From the NCBI GenBank assembly GCA_038231275.1, contig JBBRLQ010000003.1, positions 1 through 44,339 of the forward strand: 44,339 nucleotides of DNA, read 5' to 3'. A program made the position numbers and the translations under genes. Under the pieces are notes generated by a model. The model was not told where the DNA came from, searched no databases, and was given only the letters and a program-made list of their open reading frames with translations. Shown here one piece after another: positions 12,401 to 38,167 of this stretch (positions are counted from its first letter, which is position 1; every line of letters begins with the position of its first letter). This DNA comes from Polyangiales bacterium. Lineage in GTDB: Bacteria > Myxococcota_A > Polyangia > Polyangiales > Polyangiaceae.

Positions 12401-15400
12401 TGCTCGCGCTGCACGTCGCCGAGCTCGCGGAGGAGCTGGGCGCGCGCGTCGGCCTCGGTCGTGCGATCGGCGGCGCGATCGAGGAGCTCCGCGAGCTCGC
12501 CCCACTTGCGCGCGCCCTTCAGGAGTCCGATCAGCGCGCGCGTGCTCTCGTCGGACTCGCCGAACTCGCTCTCGACCTCGCGCCAGGCGACGATGGCCTC
12601 ATCGATCTCGCCGAGCTCGCGGCTCTGGATGGTCGCGACGCGCACGCGGTCGGCGCGCGCATCCCCGCCGGGCAGTTGCGCGCTCGCCCGCTTCTTCAGG
12701 ATGTCGATGAGACGGCGCCAACGACCGTCCTTGCCGAGCAGCTCCACGAGCCCGTTCAGTGCTGCCTCGTCGGTCGGGAAGAGCTCGAGGAGCGACTCCC
12801 ACGCCCACACAGCGCGATCGGTCTCCGCCAGATCGGTCGCCAGGCGCGCCGCGGTGGACAGGACGCGACGGCGCCCCTCCGCCTCCGGCTCCAGGAGCGA
12901 GAGGCGCTCGAGGACGTCGAGCCGCTCGCGCACGCGACCGGCGTCCGCCAGGAGCGGCTCGATGCGGCGGCACGCGTGGTAGAGCGGCGTCTCCGCGACC
13001 GGCGACACGAGGAGGATGCGGAAAAATAGGTCGATCGCGCGATCGGCTTCGTGCAAGCGATCGGCGTGGACGACGCCCGCCTGCATCAACAGATCGACCC
13101 GCAGCGCGTCGTCGGTGCAATCGTCGGCGGCCGCGACGAGGACCTCGGCGAGCCGATCCTCGCGGTGCACGCGGGCGGCGATCTCGGCGAGCTTGTCGCG
13201 GTGCTCGGCCACGTCGGGCTCGAGGAGCACCAGCGCGACGTAGTGCTCCATCGCCTGCGGCTCGTTCGAGAGCTGCTGGTAGAGGGTCGCGATCTGCTGG
13301 TGACGTCGAATGCGCTCTTTGGCGTTCTTCACCGCCTCGAGCTCGACCTCCAGGATCCGCACGAGATCGGCGTCGCGCCCCTGCTCGACGTACCTCTCCT
13401 TGAGGAGGGCCGCGGCGCGCTGTCGGACGAGGGTGCGCTTCTGCCCGCCCACGGGGGGGAGCGAGTCGCGCCGCGAGACGGGCGGCCGGTCGCTGTCGGC
13501 GCTCGTCACCGGCGGCGCGACGACCGACTCGCGCAGCTCGGCGTGCGGCGGCGCGGCGGCGAGGACCCGCTCGAGGAGACGCGAAACGTCGAGCGGCGCG
13601 GCGTCGCTCTGCGTGTCGCGGGCCAGCATGTCCTCGACCACGATGAGCGCGTTGGTGGCGTCGCCCAGCTCGTCGAGCCATAGCGCCGCGATCCGCGCGC
13701 GCGACTCTTGCGAGGTCTTGTGCGGCATGCGCCCGAGCTGTCCCTGGAGGAGCTGGATCAGCTCGCGATGGCACCCGTGGCGCTCGTAGAGCCGCTCGAG
13801 CGACGCCGAGAGGCGCGCGTTGCCGGGCTTCAGCGCGAGGAGCTGCTCCAAATACCCGATGGCGCGCTTCGAGTGGTTGGCGAAATCCTTGGCGATCTGC
13901 GCGGCGTCTTCGAGCAGCTCCACCTTCTTCGCCTCGGTCGCGGCGACGAGCGCGCGATCGTAGAGCGCGAAGAGATCGTCCCAGCGCTCGGCCGCATCGA
14001 AGAGGAGCTTCAAACGATCGAAGGCCCACGCCTCGGTGGGATCGATCTCGAGGATGCGCTCGAGGATGCTGACGACGCGATCGGAGTCTTCGAACCACTC
14101 CTCGTAGAACGCGACGGCGCGCTTGCCGAGCTCGAGCGCCTCGTCTTTTTCCATCGGCGTCGCGAGCGCCTCGTGGAAGAGCTTGGCGACGCCGTCCGGC
14201 TCCTTGCGCGCGCGGGCCAGGCCCTCGGCGCGATCCCACAGCGCCGCCACGCCCGGCATCTCCGCCGCCGCGCGAAGCACGGCCTCGTACGCCTCGGCGT
14301 CACGGCTCTGATTCTCGAGCAGGTCGAGGAGGCGCTCGAACCAGTCTTGGCGCCGCTCGACCGGCGCGGCGCGATCACCGAGGAGGCAATCGAGGATGCG
14401 AACGCGCACTGCGTCGTCGGCGACGTCGAACGTCTTCTCGAGCATCTGCGCGGCCGGCGCGCGTGTCTGCGGCATCGCCAGGAGCCGACTCGCGAGCGCC
14501 AGCGCGGCGTCGTCGTTTGGCGCGCTCTCGAGGACGCTCGCCACGGACGCCAGCGCCTCCACCAGGCGCTCGGTGCGATCGAGGAGGATGGTCGCGATCT
14601 CCAGATCGAGGCGCGCGCGCGCTTCGCCGTCCGAGCGATCGCGTCGGGCCACGAGCGCGTCGATGGCCCCCTGCACGTCACCCGTCGCCAGCGCGAGCCG
14701 CGATACTGCGCCGAGCGACTCCGCGTTCTCCGGGTCGATGCCGAGCACGCGCTTGTGGAGCTCCAGCGCCGCCGGCAGATCGTGCAGGCGCGCCTCTTCC
14801 GTCTCCGCCCACGCCGCGAGCGCGTGGAGGCGTTCGCCTTCGGCGGCGTGATCGACGCGCCATTTGCACAGCCAGCGTCGATCGTCCGCCGTCCCGCCGT
14901 CGGGCCTCGCCGCGAGCAGCCCCTCGAACGCCGCCACCGCCGCGCGCGTCCGCGCCTCGTCGAGCCCGCCGGCGCCCAGGACGTCACGGTAGGCGGCGGC
15001 CGCGCGCTCATGGTTCCCCGGATCGGCGGAGAGCACGCGCGCCTTTGCCATTCGAAGCTCGGAGTGCAGGGCCTCCGCGTCGGCGTCGCCTTCGGTCGCC
15101 GCGATCGCAGCGTCCACAGCGTGCTCGAGATCGGTCGCCGCCCCCGCCGCGCCGGCCAGCCGTTCGAACGCGGCGAGCACCTCCCGGTCGCGCGGATCCA
15201 ACGCGAACGCCTGCGCGGTCGCGGCGACGGCCCCCGTCACGTCCCCCAGGTGCTCGGCGCGGACGCGCGCGACGCGCATGAGGAGCGCCGCGCGACCCTC
15301 GGCAGGACCGCTCGCGAGGAGCACGCGGAACAGCGCCGGTAGCTCGCCGAAATCGCCGGCGCGCTCGCACACCTCCGCGAGCCTCTCGGAGGCCTCGAGA

Positions 15401-18400
15401 TCGTCCGGCAGGAGCGCGCGTACTTTGGTGTAGAGTGCACGCGTCGCCTCGTCGTCCGCCGCGGCGACCGCGATCCGTGCCGCGCGCCGATAGGTCTCGC
15501 CTCCCGCGAGCCGGTCCTCGCCCTTCTCGGTCTCCACCACCGCGAGCTTCTCGAGCCACGCGATCTGATCGCGCGGATCGGCCGCCTCGAGGGCGCGACG
15601 CGAAAGCACGCGCTTCTCGAGATCGGGATCGCCGAGCGCGACGGCCACGTGCTCCACGGTCTCCAGCTCGGCGGTTTCGGTCGCCGGGTCATCCAGGAGG
15701 ATCGCCGCCTGCGCCGCTGCGCGCGCCTCCTGGCCGTGCGCCGCCGAGAGCTCCGCCAGCTGCGCGCGCGTGCGCAGCGCCTCTTCCGGCGTGACGCGCG
15801 CGAGGTGGCCTTCGAGCAGCTCGCCGAGCTCGCCCCACGCGGCGCCCTCCGTGTAGAGATCGACGAGCGCGGCGTAGGCCTTGCGATCGTCGGGCTCGTT
15901 CGCCAGCGCGGCGCGGTACGCCTCGATCGCCGCGGCGGGATTGCCCAGCTCGCCGCGCTCCAGGACGCCGATCGAATGGAGAAGCTCGCGCTTGCGCTTG
16001 TCGTCGACGCCGCGATCGAGCGCCGCGCGGTAGAGCGCCACGCGCTCGCCGGGGCTGCCCTGATCCTTCAAGAGCTCGTCGACGCGGCCGAGGATGTCGT
16101 GGTTGGAAGGCTCGAACGCCAGCGCCCGCCGCAGCGCAGCCAGCGCGCCCGCCACGTCTCCGCACTCCGCCAGCGCTTCGCCTGCCACGCGCGCGAGCAG
16201 CACGAGCTCTGCCGAGTCGATCGCCCGATCGCCGAGCGCCTTTGCCAGGAGCGCCGCGCGCCGCTTCGGATCGATCCCTGCGTTCGCGAGGCGCGCCATC
16301 CGCTCGAGCCACGGTCCGAGCGCCGCGCCTGTGGTCACCGCCTCGGCGAGCCCCTTGCCGGCGAAGTCGATCGCGCGCGCAAGGTACGCGGGGCTCTCCT
16401 CGGCGACCTGCGTGGCCTCTTCGAGCGCGCCGAGGCGCTCGTCCGCGCTCGAAGACAGCTGCGCGCGCATCTCGAGCACGCGGAGGAGGCCCTGCGTGTT
16501 CGCTTCCGCGCGGTACACCGGCTCGAGCACGCTGGCCGCGACGAGGCGCTGGTCGCCCACCGAGAGCATCTTTTCGAGCGCCGCACGCGACGTCTTCTCG
16601 GTAGGGTCGGCAGTGAGCGCGCGCCTGAACGCGTCGATCGCGAGGTCCACCTCGCGCGTGCGCTGAAGCCGCACCAGCGCGAGGCGCGCGTAGATCGCGG
16701 CGCGCTCCGCCTCGGGCGCGAGCTGCGCGTCGGCGGCGAGCGTCCCTGCCAGATCCGGCCACGCCTTCTGCTGCTCGAGGAGCGGCATCCACTGCACGAA
16801 CGCCTCGCGCGACGCGCCGTATTTTTCGACGACCGCGCGCCACGCGTGGCTGGCTCGCTCGACGTCCTGCGTCTTGGTCGTCAGCACCTCCGCGGCGCGC
16901 ACACACAGCTCGCGCGCCTCGCGGGGGCTCTCTGCGTCTTTGCCGCGCTCTTCGAGCACGTACGCCAGATCGAGCCAGCTCCCCGCCGCCTCGTAAAGCG
17001 GCTCCAGGGCAGCGAGCGCCCGAGGACGCGACGCCGTGTCGACGAGCGCGCGCCACGCCGCGATGGCCCGCGGCGCGTCCTTCAGCACCCGGAACGCCAG
17101 CTCCGCGAGGCGCTCGTTCGCCATGCGACGGCGCTCGAGATCGGGGTCGAGCTGTCCGACCTTCTCGAGCACGTCGGCGAGCGCGCGGTGGTCCCCTTCG
17201 CCCTCGTAAATCTCCGCGAGCGCGCGCGCCGCCTTGAGCGTCGCCGTCGCGTCGACCGCCGCCGCCGCGAGCACGCTGATGAAGGTCGCCTTCGCCTTCT
17301 TCACGTCGCCGCCGATCCGGTAGAGCTCGCCCATCTCCGCGGTCAACCGCGCGCGCACCGCGCTCTCTCGCGCCGCGGTGCCCACGCGCTGGAGCGTTCG
17401 CGCGGCGTCCAGGATCTTTCCGATCTGCAGCGCGAGCGAGCCGTAGCGAAGTCGCACGTCGTCGTCCGACGGATCGAGCGCGATCGCCTGCTCGAACGCC
17501 TCGAACGCGCCTTCGAGATCGTCGATCCGATCTTGCTTCAAAATGCCGATGCGCTTCAGCACGGCCAGCCGCTTGGGCCCCCGCGTGTGCTCGAGCTCGA
17601 TCGCGAGGAACTTTGCCACGTCGCTCGGGAGCCCGGTCTGCTCGTTGGCGTCCGCGAGCGCCGACGCCGCGCGCGCCGCGAGGCCCTTCACGCCGAGGAG
17701 CTTCGATGCGACGCGCCGCGCCTCGTCGTGGCCGGGCTCCTTCGCGAGGATCGCCTCGATGTGCGGCATCGTCCGCTCGGGCTCGTGCAGCTGCCCGGCA
17801 TAGAGCTCGACGAGCCGCGCGCGCAGGCGCAGCTGCTCGTCCTCGGGGAGCGGCGGCTCGGTCGTCAGCGCCTGCTCGAGGAGGCGCGCAACGTCGCGGT
17901 GACGGTTCGCCTTCACGTACTTCGCCTCGAGCATCTCGCGCGCGCCGGAGTCGGCGGGGTCGAGCTTGAGGAGCTGCTGGTAGAGCTCGATCGCCTTCTC
18001 GTCGCCGCCGGTCGTCTTCTCGTAGATCTCCGCGGCGCGCTTCAGGAGCGCGATCTGCTCGGGCTTCGCGCGGTGCTGCGCGGCGCTGGCGTAGAGATCG
18101 GCGACCTTCTTGGGATCACCGACCTTGGTGAGCAGCACCTCGAGCCGATCGAACGCCGCCGCGTGGGCCGGCAGCGCCGCGAGCGATCGTTCGAGGTAGC
18201 TCGTGGCGCCGAAGTCGTCGCCGAGCACGTCGCCAAAGAACGTCGCCGCGCGGTACAAGAACTCGGCGAGCACCGCCGGCGTCATCGTCTTCAGGCGCTT
18301 GCCTTGCGCCACCGACTCGTACGCGAACGCGAGCTCGCTCATGCGCTCGTCGCGCTGCGCGGCGCGATGCAGCTCCTCCCACGTGTCCGGTCGAAGCTGC

Positions 18401-18522
18401 CCGCGACTGAGCGCGAGCAGCATGGTGTCGAGGATCGACTCCTCGCCTTCGAGCTTCTTCTCGAAATCGAACGTCGCCTGGGGAGGGGGCATGGAGCCCC
18501 GTTGACGAGGAGGATTCTGCAT
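6403..18522 (-). CDS. Giant TPR-like alpha-solenoid repeat protein (4039 aa, single uninterrupted ORF)
   Basis: A 12,120-nt open frame on the - strand. Translation is Ala/Leu/Glu/Arg/Asp-rich but contains K, Y, W, F, Q, N, H, M throughout, with TPR-like periodicity (e.g. ...AIELYQQLLKLDPADSGAREMLEAKYVKANRHRDVARLLEQAL...). All overlapping + strand ORFs are R/L/G/V-only antisense artefacts. No catalytic motif was recognised. Confidence 0.8.
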   Translation of the reverse strand: MQNPPRQRGSMPPPQATFDFEKKLEGEESILDTMLLALSRGQLRPDTWEELHRAAQRDERMSELAFAYESVAQGKRLKTMTPAVLAEFLYRAATFFGDVLGDDFGATSYLERSLAALPAHAAAFDRLEVLLTKVGDPKKVADLYASAAQHRAKPEQIALLKRAAEIYEKTTGGDEKAIELYQQLLKLDPADSGAREMLEAKYVKANRHRDVARLLEQALTTEPPLPEDEQLRLRARLVELYAGQLHEPERTMPHIEAILAKEPGHDEARRVASKLLGVKGLAARAASALADANEQTGLPSDVAKFLAIELEHTRGPKRLAVLKRIGILKQDRIDDLEGAFEAFEQAIALDPSDDDVRLRYGSLALQIGKILDAARTLQRVGTAARESAVRARLTAEMGELYRIGGDVKKAKATFISVLAAAAVDATATLKAARALAEIYEGEGDHRALADVLEKVGQLDPDLERRRMANERLAELAFRVLKDAPRAIAAWRALVDTASRPRALAALEPLYEAAGSWLDLAYVLEERGKDAESPREARELCVRAAEVLTTKTQDVERASHAWRAVVEKYGASREAFVQWMPLLEQQKAWPDLAGTLAADAQLAPEAERAAIYARLALVRLQRTREVDLAIDAFRRALTADPTEKTSRAALEKMLSVGDQRLVAASVLEPVYRAEANTQGLLRVLEMRAQLSSSADERLGALEEATQVAEESPAYLARAIDFAGKGLAEAVTTGAALGPWLERMARLANAGIDPKRRAALLAKALGDRAIDSAELVLLARVAGEALAECGDVAGALAALRRALAFEPSNHDILGRVDELLKDQGSPGERVALYRAALDRGVDDKRKRELLHSIGVLERGELGNPAAAIEAYRAALANEPDDRKAYAALVDLYTEGAAWGELGELLEGHLARVTPEEALRTRAQLAELSAAHGQEARAAAQAAILLDDPATETAELETVEHVAVALGDPDLEKRVLSRRALEAADPRDQIAWLEKLAVVETEKGEDRLAGGETYRRAARIAVAAADDEATRALYTKVRALLPDDLEASERLAEVCERAGDFGELPALFRVLLASGPAEGRAALLMRVARVRAEHLGDVTGAVAATAQAFALDPRDREVLAAFERLAGAAGAATDLEHAVDAAIAATEGDADAEALHSELRMAKARVLSADPGNHERAAAAYRDVLGAGGLDEARTRAAVAAFEGLLAARPDGGTADDRRWLCKWRVDHAAEGERLHALAAWAETEEARLHDLPAALELHKRVLGIDPENAESLGAVSRLALATGDVQGAIDALVARRDRSDGEARARLDLEIATILLDRTERLVEALASVASVLESAPNDDAALALASRLLAMPQTRAPAAQMLEKTFDVADDAVRVRILDCLLGDRAAPVERRQDWFERLLDLLENQSRDAEAYEAVLRAAAEMPGVAALWDRAEGLARARKEPDGVAKLFHEALATPMEKDEALELGKRAVAFYEEWFEDSDRVVSILERILEIDPTEAWAFDRLKLLFDAAERWDDLFALYDRALVAATEAKKVELLEDAAQIAKDFANHSKRAIGYLEQLLALKPGNARLSASLERLYERHGCHRELIQLLQGQLGRMPHKTSQESRARIAALWLDELGDATNALIVVEDMLARDTQSDAAPLDVSRLLERVLAAAPPHAELRESVVAPPVTSADSDRPPVSRRDSLPPVGGQKRTLVRQRAAALLKERYVEQGRDADLVRILEVELEAVKNAKERIRRHQQIATLYQQLSNEPQAMEHYVALVLLEPDVAEHRDKLAEIAARVHREDRLAEVLVAAADDCTDDALRVDLLMQAGVVHADRLHEADRAIDLFFRILLVSPVAETPLYHACRRIEPLLADAGRVRERLDVLERLSLLEPEAEGRRRVLSTAARLATDLAETDRAVWAWESLLELFPTDEAALNGLVELLGKDGRWRRLIDILKKRASAQLPGGDARADRVRVATIQSRELGEIDEAIVAWREVESEFGESDESTRALIGLLKGARKWGELAELLDRAADRTTEADARAQLLRELGDVQREHLDGAKDAIDSYGAALHADAREAGARAGLHALLPRAEHRAAAVEVLLEAYRVCDEWARILELTEHRLGTSVDDGDKVVVLLEAAKISEERAGDLEGAFAATRRAFLVAPQTRDVEAQLHRLADATRQWRSLAEAQREAIEAREVHSTVEAWLPGLRFRMAEVLETKLDDPRAALVAYQRVAQDAPRDLDAARATVRVAARVMRWDAAAKVVLESSRATDRLEPLLVEAVEEAATTPGAWDAATAAFAAAVGERPDLPAAIARDAEGRVALWHRDRRGDPDAAEAAFVRALAYDAANADLLFELAQLQRRSKGRPLVESLLRLSTATGGDLDLLREAAEITTSSVGDRSLAKSILERMLKLGTERWIGSDPDGPVTLGSPGAPSGAVEWALRELVRIHDEEGDAERIVELLVDTARLPFRLQTSRGMRHDAARIAAERLGDHDRAVALYMALFTEDAEDVRAVHHLVELYEAKGQKDELLALKRKQIAAAKSPSKRVDLRLEAAPLLTLLGDLEGCIRILRESLDEDPRHTATVQELVAVLERERRHNELAELLATQATRAEKAEEQASAADLWARAARVAEENLKDVDAAIAHHQKVIAIDARPESLDALARLSTQKKSFEDAARYLEQLHTACKPEARAEVTLRLSAALVSAGNDDQARARLEEAIAADPDAEGVRARLAEVYRAKSDWKALAALLTDGAAHAPDKATRLARLREAADLQMRGDEPQAAIPLLEQASDLEPEDRAIRLALGDALGAAQRFDEARDLLRKLIDGFAGRRPKERAPVHYHLARLDLAVGDRARALVELDQATRIDPANPEILRALAELARDDGQLERAERSYRALLAVLRRQEGTRPDPPVVRSEVLLELSFIAERQGENERAKEILESALETAIGSEVEARRLEAALRARGDYQTLVRSLEGRLARASIPPATAAEGLGELASVLETHLGRRDDALAARLRAVKLAPDSAAAHEAALGLARQQGAVLKYVDHLAELAGGAEEAKSQKLACDLLLRMGAVVEEDLKDDKRAAAIYERAERHGTRSADVLFALDRIYERVGDEKSQARILAARVQLEEREGRLTSDPLFRLASLRLKGKSKPEEGCELLVAALDREADWARAEGILRDAAQAHPDSAQVIALYEKVGREPGFERALVDALARRWRQTSGGAEDALREAVATAEKLGDAAQAEALLRELLASDNEDQASRAWALSRLSELRAAAGDLTEAVEHKRAAAELAEPDEARKLRFDVARLAAAELGDLPLAAATYEALHENEPADREAWDPLLSVYRRMGAAQKLVELVGRVVELVEDPAERSRLRVERVKAMMGELGMSDEEAIPALREIVDEDPSQLEPAIQLASILERLGRSDELADLLARQLEGAKDRSDAPSVASLSVRLGSLLEQRDRIEAKNVYYVGLDWDAQNRPLLEALARLHSVEGEAGDRADILERLLALETGPAAEKLALELAQLRADAWDEEGAMRALELGFKACPQSAQIRDRLESTYREKSSWPKLAELAVTDARGRTDPDDKVARFAEAASIYQNELKDAVSGARILREARAIAPDDQVLLGELVQMLTAAGDFSGASDELSIAIDGLGDANHPALPSLLAQRAGMRSKLGDDAGALDDMELAYTAGGSSYIRDLASYLERIGMRAAATGDIARWRTVRLRLGELLPQIGDHDGARSLLGDLLKNDGKDKDALRALAQLEEVAQHWDAASAVYRRLVALEEGDDVVDTALRLADACERAGRIGDARGGLERARMTAPTNAALRRRLELLYEQTAAFKELAEMSLEDAKGSLEVAGRFTHLMRAGSLLLQQGGNPEEAVQPLEEAHALRPADLDCLVRLADAYILSGRAPQAGELVMGVIAQNKGRRSREQSPLYHRLAKIARAQGDPQQEITHLSVALDMDSQNGVVASELATVAMVVGQHEVATRALRAITMLKTAAPMSKALAYQYLGEIARQQGDKKRAIMLLKRAIDDDPTLGSARAILEQLERDG

Positions 18523-18613
18523 CCGCGCGGATCATGGAGGGTATCAATCCCCGCGGCGTTGGGAAGCCCATGGAAATGTGGGGAAAATGGCCTCCGGACC
18601 GCCCCTGCTCTGG

Positions 18614-18913: not shown

Positions 18914-19091
18914 CGCGAGCTTGATCGAGACGATGCCGCCGAGGAGGGCGCCGACGAGAGGCGCGCGCAGGCCCGGCGAGCTCGGGGGAGATGGAGGGAC
19001 GACAGGAGGCTTTTCCTGGCTCATCCCCGCGGCCTGCGGTGCCCGTGCTTGACGGCGCCCGCTCCATTCCTTATACGCCTGCGGCTCCCCA

Positions 19092-20003
19092 ATGACACAG
19101 CTTGCCGACGGATTGGCCCCCGCAAAGATCGCGCAGCGCGTCCGTGTGGCGGATCTCATCGCCCTGACCAAGCCGCGAATCACGCTCATGGTCGTCATCA
19201 CGACGCTCGGCGGTCTCTTCCTCGCGCGTCGCGCCGAGGGGGCGGTCTTCACCGCGTGGATCGTGGGATGGGCCGTGCTCGGGACGGCGCTCGTCGTCGC
19301 CGGCGCGAACGCGCTCAACATGTACATCGAGCGCGAGATCGACGGGAAGATGGCGCGGACGCAGAATCGTCCGCTCCCCGCCGGCCGCCTGAACGCGCGC
19401 GTGGCGCTCTGGTTCGGCGTGATCCTCTCGGCGGTATCGGTGCCCATCCTCGCGATCGGCGTGAACCCGCTCACCGCCTTGCTCGCGGTGCTCGCGAACG
19501 TGAGCTACGTCCTCGCGTACACACCGATGAAGCAGCGATCGCACCACGCGCTCCTCGTCGGCGCGGTGCCTGGCGCGATCCCGCCGCTGCTCGGTTGGAC
19601 GGCGGCGACTGGGCGGATCGACGCGGCCGGCGTCGTGCTCTTCGCGGTGTTGTTCCTCTGGCAGGTGCCGCATTTCCTGGCCATCACGCTCTTCCGCCGC
19701 GAAGACTACGCGCGCGCGGGCCTCGTGGTGATGCCGAACGTGACCGGGACGCGGGACGTGAAGCACGCCATCGTGCGGTATTCGCTGGCGCTGGTGGGGG
19801 CGAGCCTGCTCCTCGTCCCGCTGCGCATCGCGCACGTCGGCTACTTCGTGGTGGCGGCGGCGCTGGGCGTGGCCTTCTTCGCGTTGGGCTGCTTCGGATT
19901 GCGGGAGGACGCGGGCCGCAAGTGGGCGCGCTCGCTGTTCGCGGCGTCGATCGTTTACCTGCTCCTCCTCTTCATCGCGGTCGCTGTCGACCCGCTCGCG
20001 TAG
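19092..20003 (+). CDS. ctaB: Protoheme IX farnesyltransferase (heme O synthase)
   Basis: UbiA-fold membrane prenyltransferase, 303 aa: ...ALNMYIEREIDGKMARTQNRPLPAGRL... and ...WQVPHFLAITLFRREDYARAG... are CtaB/CyoE hallmarks. Confidence 0.9.
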   Translation: MTQLADGLAPAKIAQRVRVADLIALTKPRITLMVVITTLGGLFLARRAEGAVFTAWIVGWAVLGTALVVAGANALNMYIEREIDGKMARTQNRPLPAGRLNARVALWFGVILSAVSVPILAIGVNPLTALLAVLANVSYVLAYTPMKQRSHHALLVGAVPGAIPPLLGWTAATGRIDAAGVVLFAVLFLWQVPHFLAITLFRREDYARAGLVVMPNVTGTRDVKHAIVRYSLALVGASLLLVPLRIAHVGYFVVAAALGVAFFALGCFGLREDAGRKWARSLFAASIVYLLLLFIAVAVDPLA

Positions 20004-20009
20004 CGCGCC

Positions 20010-20483
20010 GTGGCCTTCACGGCCCCTGCGAAAAAGACGGCGGTCGTCGCGCTCTTCGTCGTCGCCCTCGTGTCCGGCGTCGTGCTCGCGCGTTCGTGGA
20101 GCGGTCGCGACGGCCCCGAGCTTGGCGGCTTTCACGGCGTGCGTCTGGGGATGACCGCAAGCGCGGTGCGGGAGCGCTTCGAAGAACCGACGCTCGGGGC
20201 CTGGCGATCCTTACCGTCGACCGGCGCAGGTGACGTGGTCCTCGCGTGGACGGCCGCGAAGGGACCGGCGGAGGCGCAGTTCGAGCTTCACAACGGAATG
20301 CTCGTCGCAGTGCGCGCGGCGGTCGAGGTGACCGATCCCGACGCGAAGCGCCCGCCCGTGCAGAGCTCGCGCGCCGTCGTGCGTACGCGAACCGACGAGG
20401 GCGGGCACGTACGCGTCACGGTGCTGGCGCGCGATTGCCCGACGCACCACGACGAAGCGGAGCGGCTCGCGGCGGGAAAATGA
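20010..20483 (+). CDS. Hypothetical membrane-anchored protein (157 aa)
   Basis: Starts 6 nt after the ctaB stop with an N-terminal hydrophobic helix (TAVVALFVVALVSGVVLA). No recognised domain. Confidence 0.45.
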   Translation: MAFTAPAKKTAVVALFVVALVSGVVLARSWSGRDGPELGGFHGVRLGMTASAVRERFEEPTLGAWRSLPSTGAGDVVLAWTAAKGPAEAQFELHNGMLVAVRAAVEVTDPDAKRPPVQSSRAVVRTRTDEGGHVRVTVLARDCPTHHDEAERLAAGK

Positions 20484-20498
20484 GCGCTCCGCCGAGCC

Positions 20499-22187
20499 TT
20501 ACGGCATGCGGCGCTCGCGGATGCGCTGGATGAGCTCGAGGATGCGGGCGTCGCCGGGGAGGAGGCGTCGCGCGATCGAGGCCTCGTGCTCCGCGTCGTC
20601 GATCGCGTCACGGGCGAGCAGCGCCTCGGCGAGGCCAGTGCGCGCGCGGAACGATCCGGGATCGCGGGCCAGCGCGCGACGGTAGGCCTCGGTGGCCGCC
20701 TGGGCGTCACCGCGCGCAAGAAGCGCGCTGCCGATCGCGACGCGCGCGCCGGTGTCGGCGAAGAGAGCGTCGGCGCGGCGCAGATCGGGGAGCGCGCGGT
20801 CCGCTTCGCCGAGGGCGAGCTCGTGAAGTCCGAGCTCCAGCGCCGCCTCTCCCGAGCTGGGATCGATGCGGCACGCCCTCAGGAGCGCGGCGAGGCGCGC
20901 GTCGGGAGCGAGATCGACGGCGCGCGAACGCTCACGCGTCGAGAGCCACCCACGCGTCGCGGGGACGAGGAGCCACGCGACGGCGGCAAGGCCCACCAGT
21001 GCCGCCGTCACGTGACGTGATCGATGCCGACGCGGAGCGCGAACGTCCATCGTCGGGACCCCGAGCGCGAAGCCCGCGAGGAGCAGGATCGCCGGTTGCC
21101 GAAGCGGCGAGTCGCCAAAGCACGCGACGCCGAGCGCGGCGACCGACGCTGCACCCCCGATCCACCCCGCGCGCGCGTGAGCACGGACCCCGAGCAAGAT
21201 CGTCCACACCAGGAGGAGTGCCGCGAACGGGCCCGACTCGACCGCGACCTGGAGGTACTCGTCGTGCGCCGTCGTCGCGTTCACGAAGCGCCGCGCGGCC
21301 TCGGGCGGGGTCATTCGCGCAAGCTCCTGGCCTTGCGCGTCGAGGTACGCGTGACCGAAGCGCCCGAGGCCCACGCCGAACGGCGCGCTCGCCGACGCCG
21401 CGCGCGCCGCACCATGCCAGATCCACGCGCGCCCGCGGAGCGCGAGATCGGCAGGCACGTCGCCTTCGGCGGCCGCGCCACGGGCCGCGAGCAGGACCAC
21501 GACCGTCGTGGCCACAGCGGCGACCCTTCGGGTCCATCGCCCGCGCACCGACGCGAAGAACATCCACGCGCACGCGACGAACGCCGCGGCCCACCCCACC
21601 CGCGAGTGCGAGAGGAGGAGGCCCACCGCCGCCGCCGCGCATGCGATCCCGGCGATCGCGCGCCCTCGTCCCCGCCACGCGCGCGCCGCATCGATGCACA
21701 GCGGGAGCGCGCACGCGAGCAGCAGGCCGAGCCAGTTCGGGTTTCCTTGGCCGCCGTGGAGCGCGAGCCCGCGTGCGCCGTGCAGCGCCGCGGCGATCGC
21801 CACCGCGCCCGACACCATGCCGACCGCGACCGCCAAGGCCCGCGCGGCGTGTCGTCCGACGCGAACGCCGAGCTGCGAGGCGAGCACACCCGCGCCGAGC
21901 GCGCCGACCAGCGCCCCGAGATCGCGCGCACCTTGCGGCAGTCCCCATCCGAGGCTCAGCGCAGACATCGCGACGAACGCCACGCCTGCGCGCGCCCCCC
22001 AGCTCGTCGCCGCGCCGCGCGACCGCCGCACGAGAACGAGCGCGAACGCCGCCGCCGCGACGAGCAGTCCAAGCACACGCTTCGGATCCGCCGCTTCGGC
22101 GCGCGGATCGTACGCGAGCGAGGCGGTCACCAGCGCCGCGCCGAAGCCGCCCAAGAGCCAGGCCGCACCTCGCCGCGCGGCGGTCAC
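20499..22187 (-). CDS. O-antigen ligase (Wzy_C) family polytopic membrane protein with C-terminal TPR repeats
   Basis: Multiple TM helices. The Wzy_C-like motif FGVGLGRFGHAYL...AHDEYLQVAVESG is present. The C-terminal ~150 aa are TPR-like (ALELGLHELALGEADRALPDLRRADALF...). Confidence 0.7.
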   Translation of the reverse strand: MTAARRGAAWLLGGFGAALVTASLAYDPRAEAADPKRVLGLLVAAAAFALVLVRRSRGAATSWGARAGVAFVAMSALSLGWGLPQGARDLGALVGALGAGVLASQLGVRVGRHAARALAVAVGMVSGAVAIAAALHGARGLALHGGQGNPNWLGLLLACALPLCIDAARAWRGRGRAIAGIACAAAAVGLLLSHSRVGWAAAFVACAWMFFASVRGRWTRRVAAVATTVVVLLAARGAAAEGDVPADLALRGRAWIWHGAARAASASAPFGVGLGRFGHAYLDAQGQELARMTPPEAARRFVNATTAHDEYLQVAVESGPFAALLLVWTILLGVRAHARAGWIGGAASVAALGVACFGDSPLRQPAILLLAGFALGVPTMDVRAPRRHRSRHVTAALVGLAAVAWLLVPATRGWLSTRERSRAVDLAPDARLAALLRACRIDPSSGEAALELGLHELALGEADRALPDLRRADALFADTGARVAIGSALLARGDAQAATEAYRRALARDPGSFRARTGLAEALLARDAIDDAEHEASIARRLLPGDARILELIQRIRERRMP

Positions 22188-24268
22188 GGCCGCTTGGCGG
22201 CGGCGCGATCCGCGCGGACGTCGAGGATGCGGCGCAGCTGATCGCGCACGGCGCCGCGTCCCTCCCGCGCCAGCGCGCGTCGAAGGAGCTCCGTCGTCAC
22301 CGCACGCTCGTCACGAACCAGGTATTTTTCAGCCAGATCGCGCTCCGCGCGCGTCGCCCCGCCGAGCGCCGCGAGCATGCGGAAGACCGCCTTCTCCGGC
22401 TCCCACGCGAAACGGATCGCCGCCGCCGCCATCGCGATCGGCACGTCGGCGCCCTTCGCGCGCGTCTCGAGCTCCGGTGTCATTCGCGCGCGCGCCTTCG
22501 GCTCCGAGACCCGCGACGCGAGGCGCACGAAGCTCGGCAGCTGGTCTTGCGGCAGGTTGTCGAGATCGCGAAACACCTGCGCCGCGCCCGCCGGATCGTC
22601 CGCACGCGCGAGCGCGAGGGCCGCGTGGATGCGCAGGCGCGTGTTCTCGTGCGCGAGGAGCTGCCCGAGGATCTCGCCGGCCTGCGCGTCGGTCAGCTCG
22701 CCCGCGAGATCGATCGCCGAGAGCGTCCGCAAGATCGTCTTGTGCGCCAGCGACGCTTGGATCTCGCTCCGCGCGAGCGGCCCCGCGCCGGCGGGCTTCA
22801 TCGTCGCCACGAGATCCGTCAGCTCGCTCCGCCCTTTGCTCCACGCGAGGAGCGTTCGGCCTGGCACGTCGGGGGACTTCGACGCGCGCATGAAGTTCTC
22901 GACGTCGCCCAAGTGGCACTGCGACAGCTCGAGGCAAAGCAGCAGATCCTGCGTGACCCGCGGATCGTTTCCGCGCCCGAGCAGGATCGCCGCCTCGGCC
23001 TTGGTCTCGGGCACGGCGTAGAGCTTGTCCCACACGAGATCGGTCCGCGTGTTGCCGCTGAGCGCGTAGATGGCGTAGATCGCCGCGCGCTTGAGGCTGG
23101 GGTTCGGATCGTCGACGTACTTCTCGAGGACCGCGGCGCCTTCCTTCGCGTCGAGCTTGCCGATCGCCGTCACGGCAGAGAGGCGGACCATGTCGTTCTT
23201 GTCGTCGAGGGCCGCGCGGAGGAGCGGCAGCCCCTCGGGCCGGCGCACGTCGCCGAGCACGAACGCGGCGTTCATCCGGATCTGCGCCTGCTTGTGCCCG
23301 ACCAGATCGCGCGCGGTGCCGTAGAACGCCTGCGGATCGAGGCGCTCCAGCGCGAACGCGATGTTGTTCAGCATCCGCGACTCGCGCACGTGCGGCACTT
23401 GCTCGAGCAGCGCGCGCGTCGCGGTCTTGTCGCCGATCTTTCCGAGCGCGTACACGGCGCGGTTGCGGATGCGCGTGTCGGCGTTCTTCATCAGCTTCAC
23501 GAGCGCGGGGCCGAGCTCGGGCGCGCGCAGCTCACCGGCCGCGAAGGTCGCCGCCATGACGAGGCCAGGATCGTTGCTCCCGAGCGCGTACGACACGTCG
23601 CCGACGAGCACTGAGCGATCGACGAGGTGACGGCTCTTCCACAGCCCCCGAAACGCCGAGACGCGGAGCGTCGCGAGCTCCTCCTTGGGCTGGTGGAGCG
23701 CGTCGCGAAGGACCTTCACCGCGCGCCCGCTGTTCTGCGAGCCGAGCGCGTCTAGGGCAGCGCCGCGGTTTTGCTCCTCTTCATCCTCACGCGCGAGGAT
23801 CTTCTCGAGCGGCGCGACGTTGCTGGGGTCCGGGATCTTCCTCAGCGCGGCGACCGCGGTCCCTCGAACGCCCGGATCCCACGCCTCGAGCGCGCCTTGA
23901 AGCGCCGGCAGCGCGCTCTTGTCGCCGAGGCGCCCGAGCATCTCCGCGCACGTCGCGCGCAGGTGATCGTCCACGTTGTCGGAGACGCAGCGCGCGAGCG
24001 CTTTGGTCGAGCGGCGGCCGAGGTTCAGCACGTCGGGGCTCGCCGGCATGTCGCGCCGGATCACGTTGATGAGGACCGCCTCGTCCTTCGGGATCGCGAG
24101 CAGCACCTCGCGCTTCTTCTTGGAGAGCTGATCGCTCGAGAGCGCCTCGCCAGCCTGCGGCGCGTCGTCCTCTTCTTCGTCGGCGAAGGCCGTGCGCACG
24201 ACCGCCGCGCTCGGCAGCGCCGCCGCGAGGACCAGGAGAGCGAGGAGCGTGCCTCTTCGCGGCTTCAT
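22184..24268 (-). CDS. Secreted HEAT/PBS-lyase-like repeat protein (694 aa)
   Basis: Signal peptide MKPRRGTLLALLVLAAALPSAAV. Repeated HEAT-like units (DPGVRGTAVAALRKI, DTRIRNRAVYALGKIGD, NDMVRLSAVTAIGKL, NPSLKRAAIYAIYAL). Its stop overlaps the start of the downstream ligase gene by 4 nt. Confidence 0.75.
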   Translation of the reverse strand: MKPRRGTLLALLVLAAALPSAAVVRTAFADEEEDDAPQAGEALSSDQLSKKKREVLLAIPKDEAVLINVIRRDMPASPDVLNLGRRSTKALARCVSDNVDDHLRATCAEMLGRLGDKSALPALQGALEAWDPGVRGTAVAALRKIPDPSNVAPLEKILAREDEEEQNRGAALDALGSQNSGRAVKVLRDALHQPKEELATLRVSAFRGLWKSRHLVDRSVLVGDVSYALGSNDPGLVMAATFAAGELRAPELGPALVKLMKNADTRIRNRAVYALGKIGDKTATRALLEQVPHVRESRMLNNIAFALERLDPQAFYGTARDLVGHKQAQIRMNAAFVLGDVRRPEGLPLLRAALDDKNDMVRLSAVTAIGKLDAKEGAAVLEKYVDDPNPSLKRAAIYAIYALSGNTRTDLVWDKLYAVPETKAEAAILLGRGNDPRVTQDLLLCLELSQCHLGDVENFMRASKSPDVPGRTLLAWSKGRSELTDLVATMKPAGAGPLARSEIQASLAHKTILRTLSAIDLAGELTDAQAGEILGQLLAHENTRLRIHAALALARADDPAGAAQVFRDLDNLPQDQLPSFVRLASRVSEPKARARMTPELETRAKGADVPIAMAAAAIRFAWEPEKAVFRMLAALGGATRAERDLAEKYLVRDERAVTTELLRRALAREGRGAVRDQLRRILDVRADRAAAKRP

Positions 24269-24612
24269 GAGGCGTTCGCCTTTCGCGTGAGCTCGCGCAG
24301 ACGCCGGAGGACCGCGTCCTTCGTCGTGCGCCGAGACAGATACCTAATCTCGACCTTGCGACCGGCGCACCCACGCGCCTGGTCCCACGTGACAAGCTCC
24401 ACCGCGCGGTCCTCGTAGACCGCGAGATCGAAGCGCTCGTCGCAGTCGCTCGATGCTTCGAGATCGACGGTGGCCGACAGCGTCGCGCGCGGCTCGGCGT
24501 CGGGCACCGGCGTATCCCACGTCGCCACACGCGGTCGGCCGCTCCCGCACGCGACGAGCGCAGGGACGCAGGCCGAGAGAGCGATCGTGGCGAGGAGGTG
24601 TCGCGCGTTCAT
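24265..24612 (-). CDS. Small lipoprotein (115 aa), first gene of the envelope operon
   Basis: ATG at 24612 gives MNARHLLATIALSACVPALVACGSG (signal plus lipobox). Its stop overlaps the HEAT protein start (ATGA). The longer upstream part of ORF 24265..25062 is R-rich junk. Confidence 0.5.
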   Translation of the reverse strand: MNARHLLATIALSACVPALVACGSGRPRVATWDTPVPDAEPRATLSATVDLEASSDCDERFDLAVYEDRAVELVTWDQARGCAGRKVEIRYLSRRTTKDAVLRRLRELTRKANAS

Positions 24613-24711
24613 CGGTCGACGACGTTGTACGCCGCTGGCCTTCGTTTCTATTCCAATTCGTCTCCCGGGGCGCGACGAATCCCGCGTAGAGGGCGTGCTA
24701 CCGTCGGCGTG

Positions 24712-25080
24712 ATGAGGTGGGTTCGACAAGACCCGGTGACCGAAGACTCGTGTGGGCAATGCTGCGCCGCGATGCTCCTGGCGATTCGCAAGCGCGACGC
24801 CATCGCGCGCGTCGGCCACGACCTGGGGACGACGACTCGCGAGATGGCCAAGGTGCTGCGTGACGGCGGGCTTCGTGTGGCGCCGCGTTTGAAGAAGCTC
24901 CACACGTTCGACGCGATCCCGACGGCGCGCGCGCTCCTGCTCGGCACGTGGCGGCGGTACCCGCACTGGATGGTGTGGAACCGCGGGCGCGTCCTCGATC
25001 CGGTCGAGGGTGTCCTCCCGGTGCAGCCGAAGGGCCTCCCGCGCTGGATTCGCGTCACGCACTACCTCGCGGTCGAGTGA
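24712..25080 (+). CDS. Stand-alone papain-fold C39-like cysteine peptidase domain protein (~122 aa)
   Basis: From ATG 24712: MRWVRQDPVTEDSCGQCCAAMLLAIRKRD carries the Q...CG.A.L.M oxyanion/Cys motif of C39-type peptidases. ...RRYPHWMVWNRGRVLDPVEG carries the H-hydrophobic...DP..G catalytic His/Asp block. Confidence 0.55.
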   Translation: MRWVRQDPVTEDSCGQCCAAMLLAIRKRDAIARVGHDLGTTTREMAKVLRDGGLRVAPRLKKLHTFDAIPTARALLLGTWRRYPHWMVWNRGRVLDPVEGVLPVQPKGLPRWIRVTHYLAVE

Positions 25081-25082
25081 CG

Positions 25083-25757
25083 ATGAGCCGCCGCGACAAC
25101 GCCGCGTTTCGGTGCGCGCGCTGCCGCATGCACGCGAGCCTCTGCGTGTGCCCGCTCGTCACGAACGTCGAGACCCGAACGCGCTTGCTCCTCGTCGTCC
25201 ACCGGCGCGAGGACGGCAAGCCCACCAACACCGGCCGGCTCGCCGCCGCGTGCCTCACCAACAGCGCCGTCGTCGTGCGTGGCCACATTCCCGTGGACGA
25301 CGCGGAGGGCGAGCCCGCGCTCGAATTTCCGACCGATTCGCAGCCGCTCCTTCTCTATCCGGCCGACGACGCGGTCCCGATTACGCGCTTCGCCGGCTCC
25401 GCGCGACCGGTGGTCCTCGTCGTTCCCGACGGCAACTGGCGGCAAGCGTCGAAGGTGCGAAAGCGCGTCCCCGGCCTGGACGGCGTCCCGTGCGTCTCGC
25501 TCCCTCCCGGCGCCGCCACGTCGTACCGCCTCCGCTTCGAGCCGCAGAAAGACGGGCTCGCCACGCTCGAGGCGATCGCCCGCGCGTTCGGTGTCCTCGA
25601 AGGCCCGCACGTCGAGGAGGCGCTCCTGCGGCCGTTCCGCGCGATGGTGGAGCGAACGCTGTGGGCGCGCGGCGCGATCGATCGCGCGGCCGTTCACGAC
25701 GGCATTCCCGAGGGAGCGATGCGCCACGATCCGAAGAGCGGCGCCGGCGTCCGATGA
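25083..25757 (+). CDS. DTW-domain protein (TapT/TuaA-like aminocarboxypropyltransferase family)
   Basis: Starts 3 nt after the peptidase stop. N-terminal CxxC-x6-CxC (CARCRMHASLCVC) and a central VVPDGNWRQASK, a DTW-like motif (DGTW in canonical members). Confidence 0.65.
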   Translation: MSRRDNAAFRCARCRMHASLCVCPLVTNVETRTRLLLVVHRREDGKPTNTGRLAAACLTNSAVVVRGHIPVDDAEGEPALEFPTDSQPLLLYPADDAVPITRFAGSARPVVLVVPDGNWRQASKVRKRVPGLDGVPCVSLPPGAATSYRLRFEPQKDGLATLEAIARAFGVLEGPHVEEALLRPFRAMVERTLWARGAIDRAAVHDGIPEGAMRHDPKSGAGVR

Positions 25758-26506
25758 GCGACGACGACGAAATCACGATCGACGGCCTCACGCGCGACTT
25801 CACGATCGCGCAGCGAAAGCGCGGCCACCGCCACTCGACCGACGATCTGCTCACCGGCTGGTACGCCGCCGAGAAGGCGCCGGGGGCCACGCGCGTGCTC
25901 GACCTCGGGAGCGGCATCGGTTCCGTCGGCCTCCTCGTCCTCTGGCGCGCACCTCCTTCGGCGACGCTCACCGCGGTGGAGGCGCAAGACGTGAGCTTCG
26001 CGCTGCTCGAACGCAACGTCGCGATGAACGCCCTGGAAAAACGCGTACGCGCGGTGCACGGCGATCTTCGAGACGTTCGCTTCGCCGGCGAGACGTTCGA
26101 CCTCGTCACCGGCAGCCCGCCGTACTTCGACGTGAACGACGGCATCGTCCCGAAGGACTCGCAAAAGGCGCACGCGCGCTTCGAGCTCCGCGGCGACGTG
26201 CGCGACTACTGCGCCGCCGCCCGCGCTGCGATGGCGGCAGAGGCGCGCTTCGTCTTTTGCTTCCCCACGGCGCAGCGAAAGCGCGCCGAACGCGCCTGCG
26301 ACGAGGCGCGCCTCCCGATCGTCACGGCCCGAGACGTCGTCCCTCGCCGCGGCGCTCCTGCGCTCTTCTCGCTCTTCTGCTGCCGCCGCGCCGAAGATCC
26401 CGGACCCGCGTTCGTGGAGGAGCCGACGTACTTCGTCCGCGACGAGCACGGCGCGCAAACCGCCGAGCACGCCGCTGCCCGCGCCTCGTTCGGCATGGGC
26501 GTCTAG
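25754..26506 (+). CDS. Class I SAM-dependent methyltransferase, MTS / amino-methyltransferase type (TrmN6/YfiC-like)
   Basis: Its ATG overlaps the DTW stop (ATGA). Motif I is VLDLGSGIGSVGL and motif IV is GSPPYF ([S/N/D]PPY, N6-A/N4-C amino-MTase signature). Confidence 0.65.
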   Translation: MSDDDEITIDGLTRDFTIAQRKRGHRHSTDDLLTGWYAAEKAPGATRVLDLGSGIGSVGLLVLWRAPPSATLTAVEAQDVSFALLERNVAMNALEKRVRAVHGDLRDVRFAGETFDLVTGSPPYFDVNDGIVPKDSQKAHARFELRGDVRDYCAAARAAMAAEARFVFCFPTAQRKRAERACDEARLPIVTARDVVPRRGAPALFSLFCCRRAEDPGPAFVEEPTYFVRDEHGAQTAEHAAARASFGMGV

Positions 26507-26510
26507 TCCC

Positions 26511-27560
26511 CTAGAAATTCTTCTTCAGCACGAGCCCCGCGCGCGTCGCGTCGACGAAGTCCATCGCGAGGACGCCGTAGCGCCCCTTTCCGTGCGCCGG
26601 ATCCGAGAAGTACGCCTGGAGCTTCGGGTTGATGGAATTCGAGACGTCGCCGATGCTCGGCACGCCGAGGAGCAGCGGCGCGTAGCCGCTCGTGTAGTCG
26701 AGGTACAGCGTCGCTGCGTCCCCGCGCAACGCTTCGCCGAAGAGCGCGGTGATGGCGGTCCACTTCGCGGCGTTGTCGCTGACCTCGTACTCGTCTTGGA
26801 CTCGGAGGCGCGGAGGACCATCGACCGTGAACGTCGCCTTGTCGGCCCACTTCGTCGCGTCGATGCCCTTTGGCCCGGTGGCCGCGAACCGTCGCACGAG
26901 GACGATCTTGCCGCGCGCGTCCGACAGCGCGGGCACGGCCGTCCCCAGGCTCCAGGAGCTCGGCGCCTTCTTCACGTACGCGTCGAACGTCTGCTCGAAC
27001 GTCCGCGTGTTTCCGCTCGCCGTGTACTCCTCTTTGACGCTCATCAGGATCGTCTCGGTCGGGTGCGCCTTCATGAACGCGCCGGTCGCCGCGAGGACCT
27101 CGTCGAACGTCATCTGTTGGAAGATCGGGCCGTGGTGGATCTGGAAGGTGTCGTTGAAGTGGCGGCACCGAACGTCGAAGTAACGGACGCCCGCGGCGAG
27201 CTGCTCGGCGAGCGAGAGGGTCTGGCACTGCGCGGTCCCCGGCACCGGCTCGTGGCGGGCGCACGACTCGTGCGTGCCGGGGATCGTGAGCGCGGTGAGG
27301 CTGTCGCTGTCGGGCAGCGCGCCCATCCACGACGACGCGTCGTAGCTTGGCGTCGCGGCGTCATGCGGCTCCAACGCTCCAGCGTCGCCTCCGTCGAGGG
27401 GCGTGTCACCGAGCGGAGGGATGGGCACAGGCGATCCGGGCGGAGCCGCCGCGACGTCACCGGTCTGGTCGCTCGTTCCTGCGCCGTCGCCGCCTCCGCA
27501 GTGAGCGCATGCCATCGCCAGGGCGAGCGGGGCGAGTCGCGCGAGCAGCGTGCGGAGCAT
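26511..27560 (-). CDS. Secreted phosphatidylinositol-specific phospholipase C (PI-PLC X-domain, Bacillus-type)
   Basis: Block-by-block match to bacterial PI-PLC: LTIPGTHES (IPGTHDSG), RYFDVRCRH (RIFDIRGR), FQIHHGP, ETILMSVKEEY, SDARGKIVLVRRF, VQDEYEV, GVLAMDF. The N-terminus MLRTLLARLAPLALAMA is a signal peptide. A GTG alternative start lies at 27581. Confidence 0.85.
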   Translation of the reverse strand: MLRTLLARLAPLALAMACAHCGGGDGAGTSDQTGDVAAAPPGSPVPIPPLGDTPLDGGDAGALEPHDAATPSYDASSWMGALPDSDSLTALTIPGTHESCARHEPVPGTAQCQTLSLAEQLAAGVRYFDVRCRHFNDTFQIHHGPIFQQMTFDEVLAATGAFMKAHPTETILMSVKEEYTASGNTRTFEQTFDAYVKKAPSSWSLGTAVPALSDARGKIVLVRRFAATGPKGIDATKWADKATFTVDGPPRLRVQDEYEVSDNAAKWTAITALFGEALRGDAATLYLDYTSGYAPLLLGVPSIGDVSNSINPKLQAYFSDPAHGKGRYGVLAMDFVDATRAGLVLKKNF

Positions 27561-37287: not shown

Positions 37288-37540
37288 GGGCCTCACCGTA
37301 CCGCCCCTTTGGCGGCGCGCGAGCGCGATTTAACGCCGCGCTGTGACCCTCGCCAACGTCGCGCAACATTTTCGCGAAATCCCATGCGCACTTGCCACCG
37401 ATAACGGGGGTTGTACGAGCGGGATGGCTTCCTCTATAAAGCCCCCGCTCGCCCCCGCATTTCCTCGCGAGCAATCGCCCCTTGCCCGCGCCCCGCCCTT
37501 CTGGGGAGGGGCCGCGCGTGCAAACGGAAAGCAACCGAGA

Positions 37541-38167
37541 ATGCAGATATTCCCTCGATCGCTCAACAAGCTCCCCATCGTGGCGGCCCTCGGCGGCGGC
37601 GTGCTCGTGGGCGGGCTGACGCTCGGCATCTGGTACTACGCGTCGCCCAAGAACACGCAGGTCGGCTACGCGCCGACGCAGCCCGTGCCCTACAGCCATC
37701 GGCTCCACGCCGGCCAAATGGGCATGGATTGCCGCTATTGCCACTCGAACATCGAGAAGTCGGCGAAGGCGATGATCCCGCCGACGCAGGTCTGCATGGG
37801 CTGCCACTCGATCGTCCGCGCGGAGTCGGCGCGCATCGCTCCGCTCAAGAAGAGCTGGGAGACGAACATGCCGGTCGAGTGGGTGCAGCTCCACAAGCTG
37901 CCCGACCACGCGTACTTCGATCACTCGGCGCACCTGGCCGCCGGCGTCGGCTGCGTGACGTGTCACGGCCGCATCGACCAGATGGACGTCGTACGCATCG
38001 ACCAGCCCATCGCCATGGGCTGGTGCCTCGAGTGCCACCGCGATCCGGTGAAGAACCTGCGTCCCAAGGACCAGGTCACCAACATGACGTGGACCCCCGA
38101 TCAGTCGCCGACGTTCAAGGCGCCTGACGTCCACCCCCCCGAACACTGCTCCGGGTGCCACCGATGA
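37541..38167 (+). CDS. actA: Alternative complex III subunit A, pentaheme cytochrome c
   Basis: Five CxxCH motifs (CRYCH, CMGCH, CVTCH, CLECH, CSGCH) after an N-terminal TM anchor. Confidence 0.85.
   Translation: MQIFPRSLNKLPIVAALGGGVLVGGLTLGIWYYASPKNTQVGYAPTQPVPYSHRLHAGQMGMDCRYCHSNIEKSAKAMIPPTQVCMGCHSIVRAESARIAPLKKSWETNMPVEWVQLHKLPDHAYFDHSAHLAAGVGCVTCHGRIDQMDVVRIDQPIAMGWCLECHRDPVKNLRPKDQVTNMTWTPDQSPTFKAPDVHPPEHCSGCHR

Follow-up and report, generated by a model that had tools for sequence, protein, structure and literature searches.

The 44,339-nucleotide stretch of contig JBBRLQ010000003.1 (assembly GCA_038231275.1, Polyangiales bacterium) that was analysed here as a whole, and is referred to below as the window, carries a compact set of three genes on its forward strand. 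In this order they encode a predicted stand-alone C39-like cysteine peptidase (ORF1), a DTW-domain protein (ORF2) and an amino-methyltransferase with an SPPY motif (ORF3). An initial annotation, made from the sequence alone, had interpreted this triplet as a dedicated cassette for the modification of a peptide, an RNA or a small molecule. We consider it moderately probable that three genes of independent function lie side by side here, in an operon-like arrangement specific to one lineage, on the chromosome of an uncultured member of the Polyangia (Myxococcota); ORF2 and ORF3 look like housekeeping tRNA-modification genes whose exact targets are assigned by analogy.

The coordinates, the junctions and the coding GC pattern of the triplet were all checked, and the three ORFs are co-directional and tightly packed as first described (Table 1). 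Their coding signature (GC content of 0.87-0.88 at the third codon position, GC3, and of 0.50-0.53 at the second, GC2, in a window of 70% GC) is that of the genes of this genome, and all three are therefore regarded as real genes. The letters read ...GAGTGAcgATGAGC across the junction of ORF1 and ORF2, and ...TCCGATGAGC across that of ORF2 and ORF3. The triplet forms a discrete same-strand unit, since its 5' neighbour is a divergent lipoprotein gene (24265-24612, minus strand) and its 3' neighbour a convergent gene for a protein resembling phosphatidylinositol-specific phospholipase C (PI-PLC), the stop codon of which lies 4 nucleotides (nt) from that of ORF3. Co-transcription of the triplet in this genome, as proposed earlier, is plausible. 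Same-strand genes are commonly packed this closely, which is not remarkable on its own.

Table 1. Features of the three-gene unit, with positions in the window
Feature	Position	Strand	Description
TACCGT, -10-like TAnnnT hexamer	24699-24704	+	13 nt upstream of ORF1 ATG
ORF1	24712-25080	+	122 residues, C39-like cysteine peptidase (predicted)
ORF1/ORF2 junction TGAcgATG	25078-25085	+	2-nt spacer
ORF2	25083-25757	+	224 residues, DTW-domain protein
ORF2/ORF3 stop/start overlap ATGA	25754-25757	+	4 nt
ORF3	25754-26506	+	250 residues, SPPY amino-methyltransferase

The clearest assignment is that of ORF2, which matches the Pfam DTW profile over positions 2-194 of 195 (E=2.3e-43, 148.7 bits at a cut-off of 33.7). 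It also matches the solved structure of E. coli TapT (PDB 9kyt, E=1.1e-16), to which it is 28% identical across 179 residues (E=1e-22). The Cys4 zinc finger of ORF2 (C11/C14/C21/C23) aligns with C31/C34/C41/C43 of TapT, and Asp116, in a DGNW motif, aligns with Asp137. In TapT the D137A/N mutants keep less than 10% activity, and roles of the zinc-finger cysteines have likewise been reported (PMC12630136). The original reading of ORF2 as an aminocarboxypropyl transferase is thus well founded on the DTW profile, the structure match and the conservation of the zinc-finger cysteines and the catalytic Asp. We regard ORF2 as this organism's orthologue of TapT/TuaA, a tRNA uridine 3-amino-3-carboxypropyl (acp) transferase, with its target assigned by analogy. 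As such, this SPOUT-fold DTW enzyme would yield acp3U by transferring the aminocarboxypropyl group of S-adenosylmethionine (SAM) to a uridine of tRNA, which by analogy would be U47.

ORF3 has matches to the Pfam families MTS (2.9e-8) and Methyltransf_25, with motif I (LDLGSGIG) at residues 49-56 and motif IV (SPPY) at residues 120-123. Its top NCBIfam family is TrmN (9.4e-14; residues 10-186 against positions 10-184 of the 244 in the model), albeit at a score far below the equivalog cut-off of that family (51.7 versus 350 bits). Identity to E. coli YfiC amounts to 25% across 196 colinear residues (E=1e-14), and the leading PDB matches are the small YfiC-like methyltransferases 7wm5/7wm6 and 3lpm, together with HemK; a literature search returned nothing specific for 7WM5/7WM6. 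A total of 3340 homologues of ORF3 were found, the nearest 120 of which are at least 66% identical, and many carry the label TrmN6 from JGI. The MTS match, the SPPY motif, the TrmN family match and the colinearity with YfiC agree with the proposal that this is a methyltransferase of the TrmN6 type with an [S/N]PPY motif, and on the basis of its sequence we assign ORF3 to the class I SAM-dependent amino-methyltransferases of the TrmN6/YfiC kind. E. coli YfiC (TrmM) is the tRNA1Val m6A37 methyltransferase. By analogy, the Rossmann-fold enzyme encoded by ORF3 most likely N6-methylates a tRNA adenine, which would be A37.

The third gene product, that of ORF1, gave no usable match in direct searches of Pfam, NCBIfam and PDB sequences. 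In particular, no Pfam Peptidase_C39 match was obtained for ORF1 itself at E<=1, which places it below the gathering threshold, and a match to DUF7259 was sub-threshold (E=0.02) and judged to be spurious. A word-indexed search identified 28 homologues with identities of 59% or more, each of them labelled "hypothetical". Their alignment is characterized by a conserved N-terminus, MRWxRQxPxTEDxCGQC..AMLL, and by a PHWMVW…DPVEG segment.

This alignment bears on the gene model. The NCBI gene call for ORF1 (P0002) comprises 102 residues from Met21 and thereby loses the catalytic Cys14 as well as Gln6, which is also conserved. Residues 1-20, including this Cys, are kept across 19 full-length homologues, and a TAnnnT hexamer is found 12-14 nt upstream of this start in six of seven contexts; for these two reasons the sequence comparison identifies the ATG at 24712 as the real start of ORF1, and the NCBI call as too short. 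Several metagenomic calls for ORF1 homologues (101-111 residues) are truncated in the same way as P0002. A longer model starting at GTG-24598 was rejected, as the N-terminal extensions of the homologues are not conserved.

A model of ORF1 predicted by AlphaFold2 (AF2) from the alignment (pLDDT 88.3, pTM 0.82) has a compact papain-like alpha+beta fold that can be superposed on solved C39 domains. Its top structural matches, ComA, PCAT1 and LahT, are active Gly-Gly (GG) proteases. The putative catalytic set consists of Gln6 (oxyanion), Cys14 (nucleophile), His85 and Asp96-Pro97, with the equivalence to C39 catalytic residues drawn from colinear Pfam alignments and motif similarity, not from residue-level superposition. 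In 71 remote relatives, C14, G15, T40, H85 and W86 are invariant, A20 is nearly so, and conservation of Q6 and P97 is 90% or higher; D96 reaches at least 90% within the close subfamily. The designation "C39-like", first proposed from the spacing of Cys and His, is upheld by this predicted structure and by remote homology, on which the C39-like nature of ORF1 rests in place of a direct profile match. ORF1, a cytoplasmic protein, is thus a divergent, stand-alone and probably active member of the C39 superfamily (clan CA, papain fold). It is very improbable that ORF1 is not a peptidase, acting instead in acyl or amide transfer (BtrH-like or NAT-like) or, like the C39-like domain of HlyB, in binding without catalysis. 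Gln, Cys, His and Asp-Pro are all conserved in ORF1, and the closest structures are those of active GG-proteases. C39-like domains of the HlyB kind lack the catalytic Cys, which counts against a HlyB-like reading.

A profile search with the ORF1 family among 1.84 billion representatives retrieved 763 relatives at E≤1e-3, nearly all of them single-domain proteins of 115-145 residues. Pfam Peptidase_C39 was matched by 24 of the 71 remote relatives at E<=0.1 (best E=7e-6), in colinear alignments extending from the N-terminus to about position 94 of 133 of the profile; two of ten relatives that were inspected singly barely exceed the gathering score of 22 bits. Some members of the family are phage-borne, as 29 of the 71 match phrog_4049 and two are located in phage-like surroundings: P0031 (L094 3545-3931) lies on a phage contig with VRR_NUC, HNH, ParB_N and an SPP1-type portal, and P0036 (L095 4372-4776) in a region with an integrase, AAA_24 and RusA. 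The ORF1 family is thus a large uncharacterised group of stand-alone C39-like proteins of about 125 residues.

Among solved proteins, the family profile is best matched in sequence by 9l5u, at a marginal E=0.014, the entry title of which is "Papain-like cysteine protease toxin/immunity pair". We take this entry to be the Cpe1-Cpi1 toxin pair of type VI secretion (T6SS) from PMC12136450, a paper whose text does not name the code. In GyrB and ParE, Cpe1 cuts at a Gly-Gly motif (PMC12136450). ORF1 most likely uses Cys14 to cut a protein or peptide inside the cell at a GG-like site of small residues; in mechanistic terms, it would be a catalytically competent cytoplasmic mini-C39 with a Gln-Cys-His-Asp set, cutting its substrate after a GG-type motif. 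It is conceivable, though highly improbable, that the stand-alone C39 family, including its phage members, acts on RNA-linked or ubiquitin-like Gly-Gly conjugates rather than on leader peptides.

These links with phages give some weight to the view that ORF1 is a domesticated gene of a phage or mobile element, with an activity of the kind that its phage relatives (phrog_4049) have. It would then encode a GG protease that cleaves host proteins, as Cpe1 does with GyrB and ParE, or counteracts defence, and its location beside the two tRNA genes would be incidental. The phrog_4049 matches, the two relatives in phage-like or integrase regions, the GG cleavage by the Cpe1-type toxin nearest to the family profile, and the variable neighbourhoods of ORF1 in Polyangia all fit such an origin. 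On the other hand, Pfam scans of the larger ORFs of the window revealed no phage genes, and the GC3 of ORF1 is native-like. Members of the Polyangia subfamily lie on chromosomes and are native in composition. Their good conservation (59-82% identity) and partial synteny suggest a cellular gene of long residence. No partner gene is conserved with them, nor one resembling an immunity gene, the 9l5u match is only marginal, and none of 71 family members was matched in a PADLOC scan. We therefore consider a domesticated phage gene a rather unlikely, though serious, explanation. Two narrower proposals were dropped: a role of ORF1 in a defence system, after the PADLOC result, and a toxin-immunity pair, as there is no conserved downstream partner. 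A tblastn search of GenBank phages gave a single unannotated match for ORF1 and none for P0036, and no specific literature was found on phage C39 proteins or anti-defence roles.

Whether the three genes belong together was assessed from their conservation in other genomes. Scanning of DTW neighbourhoods, with one genome per species, yielded 80 loci with DTW proteins 45-77% identical to ORF2, from Polyangia-type Myxococcota and a few relatives; 76 of these loci had at least 500 nt of upstream and 72 at least 1 kb of downstream sequence for evaluation. An ORF1 homologue was present near the DTW gene in only 2 of the 76, and the methyltransferase in only 2 of the 72, in both cases loci L010 and L011. 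Besides these two, a hidden Markov model (HMM) of the remote family detected no ORF1-like gene in any of the 80 loci. In most related genomes, the DTW and methyltransferase genes are far apart. Of 73 evaluable loci, 25 have a same-strand gene for a TruC-like pseudouridine synthase of the RluA family directly upstream of the DTW gene. This recurrent pairing in Polyangia speaks for a tRNA-related role of the DTW gene; the 25 loci fall within L013-L082 (e.g. L013 4300-5001), and the pair is commoner than the pairing seen in the window.

Viewed from the other two genes, the result is similar. ORF1 is followed by a DTW gene in the window (and in contig L001, which is 100% identical to it), in L010, L008/L011, L090 and L096, but occurs without one in 6 of 11 contexts (L006/L007, 82% identical; the P0007 contig; L002; L003-5; L097; L098), where its neighbours are unrelated to one another. 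Orthologues of the methyltransferase occur without either partner in L091 (76% identical) and L092 (70%). In L092 an ORF of 148 residues without family match (4558-5004) overlaps the methyltransferase start by 4 nt; an HMM search ruled it out as a relative of ORF1. The three genes are thus not co-conserved, and the triplet is limited to one narrow myxobacterial clade.

Within this clade, the window and L010, L011 and L090 have a common upstream UbiA gene (85-89% identical) and a gene for a protein of about 160 residues, here called p160; the fifth locus, L096, is a 1-kb contig on which upstream synteny could not be checked. The UbiA and p160 genes of L011 (compared over 1052-2506) adjoin ORF1, with p160 next to it. 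The corresponding stretch of the window (19053-24612) has three minus-strand genes (Wzy_C/TPR, HEAT-repeat and lipoprotein), a block of 4.1 kb, interposed before ORF1. The same interposed block and ORF1 are found in L006 (compared over 1-6000) of the same clade, but downstream there is a 335-residue gene without assignment and a VanW gene in place of the DTW and methyltransferase genes. Since all triplet loci that can be checked have the UbiA-p160 synteny in common, the comparison indicates a single ancestral arrangement of a narrow clade, already broken within it, and not a recurrent association.

Spacing in the triplet varies as well. The gap between ORF1 and the DTW gene is 2 nt in the window, 31 in L010, 59 in L011 and 3 in L090, and the overlap of 4 nt between the DTW and methyltransferase genes in the window corresponds to gaps of 13, 20 and 9 nt in the other three loci. 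The TACCGT hexamer in front of ORF1 is a putative promoter, from which the triplet would be transcribed with no leader or almost none: TAnnnT hexamers occur at -12 to -14 in six of seven ORF1 contexts, against a background in the window of 0.0007 per nt. A TAnnnT also lies 12 nt before the GTG start of the DTW gene in L010 and L011, only where the ORF1-DTW gap is long, which suggests that a separate promoter of the leaderless type serves the DTW gene in these two loci. Such hexamers, 12-14 nt upstream of starts without a Shine-Dalgarno sequence, were noted at 24699-24704 in the window, at L010 4589-4594 and 4989-4994 and at L011 2922-2927, and point to leaderless transcripts. A consensus scan of positions 24200-26900 for sigma-70 promoters and terminators found no promoter, and one terminator at chance level on the wrong strand.

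Taken as a dedicated cassette, the triplet would comprise a peptidase that removes a Gly-Gly leader or trims an amide-linked group, and a DTW enzyme and a methyltransferase that modify the product; in a variant of the same joint reading, the three enzymes together build a hypermodified RNA base. The tight coupling in the window, the persistence of the arrangement in five closely related lineages, and the fact that a single substrate with an amine or amide would be open to all three chemistries speak for such a scheme. We nevertheless consider it very improbable. Beyond the one clade there is no co-conservation, and ORF1 and the methyltransferase have been found alone in six and two contexts, respectively. 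The DTW protein and the methyltransferase are colinear with E. coli TapT and YfiC and have intact catalytic and zinc-binding residues, and in L010 and L011 the DTW gene is apparently served by its own promoter. The gaps flanking the triplet measure 99 nt and 4 nt, so that there is no room beside it for a precursor-peptide gene, and none was found. Moreover, neither the Pfam-scanned larger ORFs of the window nor the called genes of L001 include an ABC (ATP-binding cassette) transporter, a peptidase-containing one (PCAT) among them, an HlyD-like protein or an enzyme for peptides that ribosomes make and that are modified after translation (RiPPs). The initial annotation was thus correct that the peptidase stands alone outside an ABC-transporter context, and the dedicated modification cassette that it proposed is unsupported. 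No ABC-exporter-type gene occurs among the neighbours of ORF1 in the seven contexts with called genes.

Our preferred reading, an operon-like juxtaposition of independent genes, involves no shared pathway. One promoter just upstream of ORF1 would drive all three genes, the DTW protein and the methyltransferase being translated by coupling, and the clustering would reflect gene packing. Several points weigh against this reading. Most comparison genomes are fragmented metagenome-assembled genomes (MAGs), in which absence of a gene within 5 kb does not equal absence from the genome. In five lineages sampled from the clade (window, L010, L008/L011, L090 and L096) ORF1 still directly precedes the DTW gene, the spacing of 2-3 nt in the window and L090 implies real co-expression, and some selection for the ORF1-DTW arrangement is conceivable. 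In addition, a score as far under the TrmN cut-off as that of ORF3 makes its target base and RNA uncertain. The most improbable of the readings considered here makes the mini-C39 a true partner of both tRNA enzymes in this clade. It could, for instance, hydrolyse or transfer an amide-linked group on the acp3U side chain, or control TapT by proteolysis, and so add a step of tRNA hypermodification or of regulation peculiar to the lineage.

The remainder of the window was surveyed through Pfam scans of the larger ORFs and the gene calls of L001, which identified Hsp70, DnaJ, UbiA, Wzy_C/TPR, HEAT-repeat and PI-PLC proteins, as well as NmrA, SnoaL and TetR proteins, an amino-acid permease, a beta-lactamase-fold protein and genes for alternative complex III. 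Scans of the window for tRNA genes and with Rfam found nothing. The set resembling alternative complex III (37334-43344, plus strand) comprises a multihaem cytochrome c7-like protein, a molybdopterin/4Fe-4S subunit, an NrfD-like membrane subunit and ActD. A single TPR-rich ORF of about 4042 residues occupies 6403-18531 on the minus strand (GC3 0.90, strongly of the coding type), with no other recognised domain. Positions 2430-6365 on the plus strand encode an Hsp70-family protein of unusual length (up to 922 residues), then a DnaJ-domain protein and a protein of 211 residues without family match; this set may represent specialised chaperones.

The region is of little consequence at present: three known kinds of enzyme gain divergent members, and tight stop/start coupling by itself is seen to be no sign of a shared pathway. 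By-products of the analysis are a corrected gene model of ORF1, which restores the catalytic Cys, the TruC-like/TapT gene pair that recurs in Polyangia, and the recognition of a large unannotated family of C39-like proteins of about 125 residues (763 representative clusters), some of them in regions of phage replication genes. This mini-C39 family is the sole lead of note, and a mildly novel one. If its members were to cut Gly-Gly sites in cellular or defence proteins, as Cpe1 does in its targets, they would be relevant to phage-host biology.

ORF1 differs from the two C39-type systems nearest to it. The C39 domains of PCAT and of ABC transporter maturation and secretion (AMS) systems, such as ComA, PCAT1 and LahT150 (PF03412), form the N-terminal part of an ABC exporter, whereas ORF1 is a free cytoplasmic protein of 122 residues that is not fused to one; unlike in those systems, no GG-leader substrate gene or transporter was found nearby. 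Toxins of the Cpe1 type (Tox-PL-C39; 9l5u, and CdiA-CT 8ssm/8ssk) form the C-terminal part of large effectors that are secreted, and a cognate immunity gene follows each of them, whereas ORF1 has neither a delivery domain nor a conserved downstream partner.

ORF3 and E. coli TrmN6/YfiC (TrmM; COG4123) are colinear over their full length and of similar size (250 versus 245 residues), with a GxGxG motif I and an [N/S]PPY motif IV in common, the latter with Ser in ORF3 where YfiC has Asn. ORF2 (224 residues, versus 232 in TapT) lacks the Arg-rich patch of about 20 residues that precedes the zinc finger in TapT, the alignment beginning at TapT residue 24, and its motif reads DGNW instead of DGTW, Asn replacing Thr. 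It nevertheless has in common with E. coli TapT/TuaA (YfiP) the DTW/SPOUT domain, the N-terminal Cys4 finger and the catalytic Asp.

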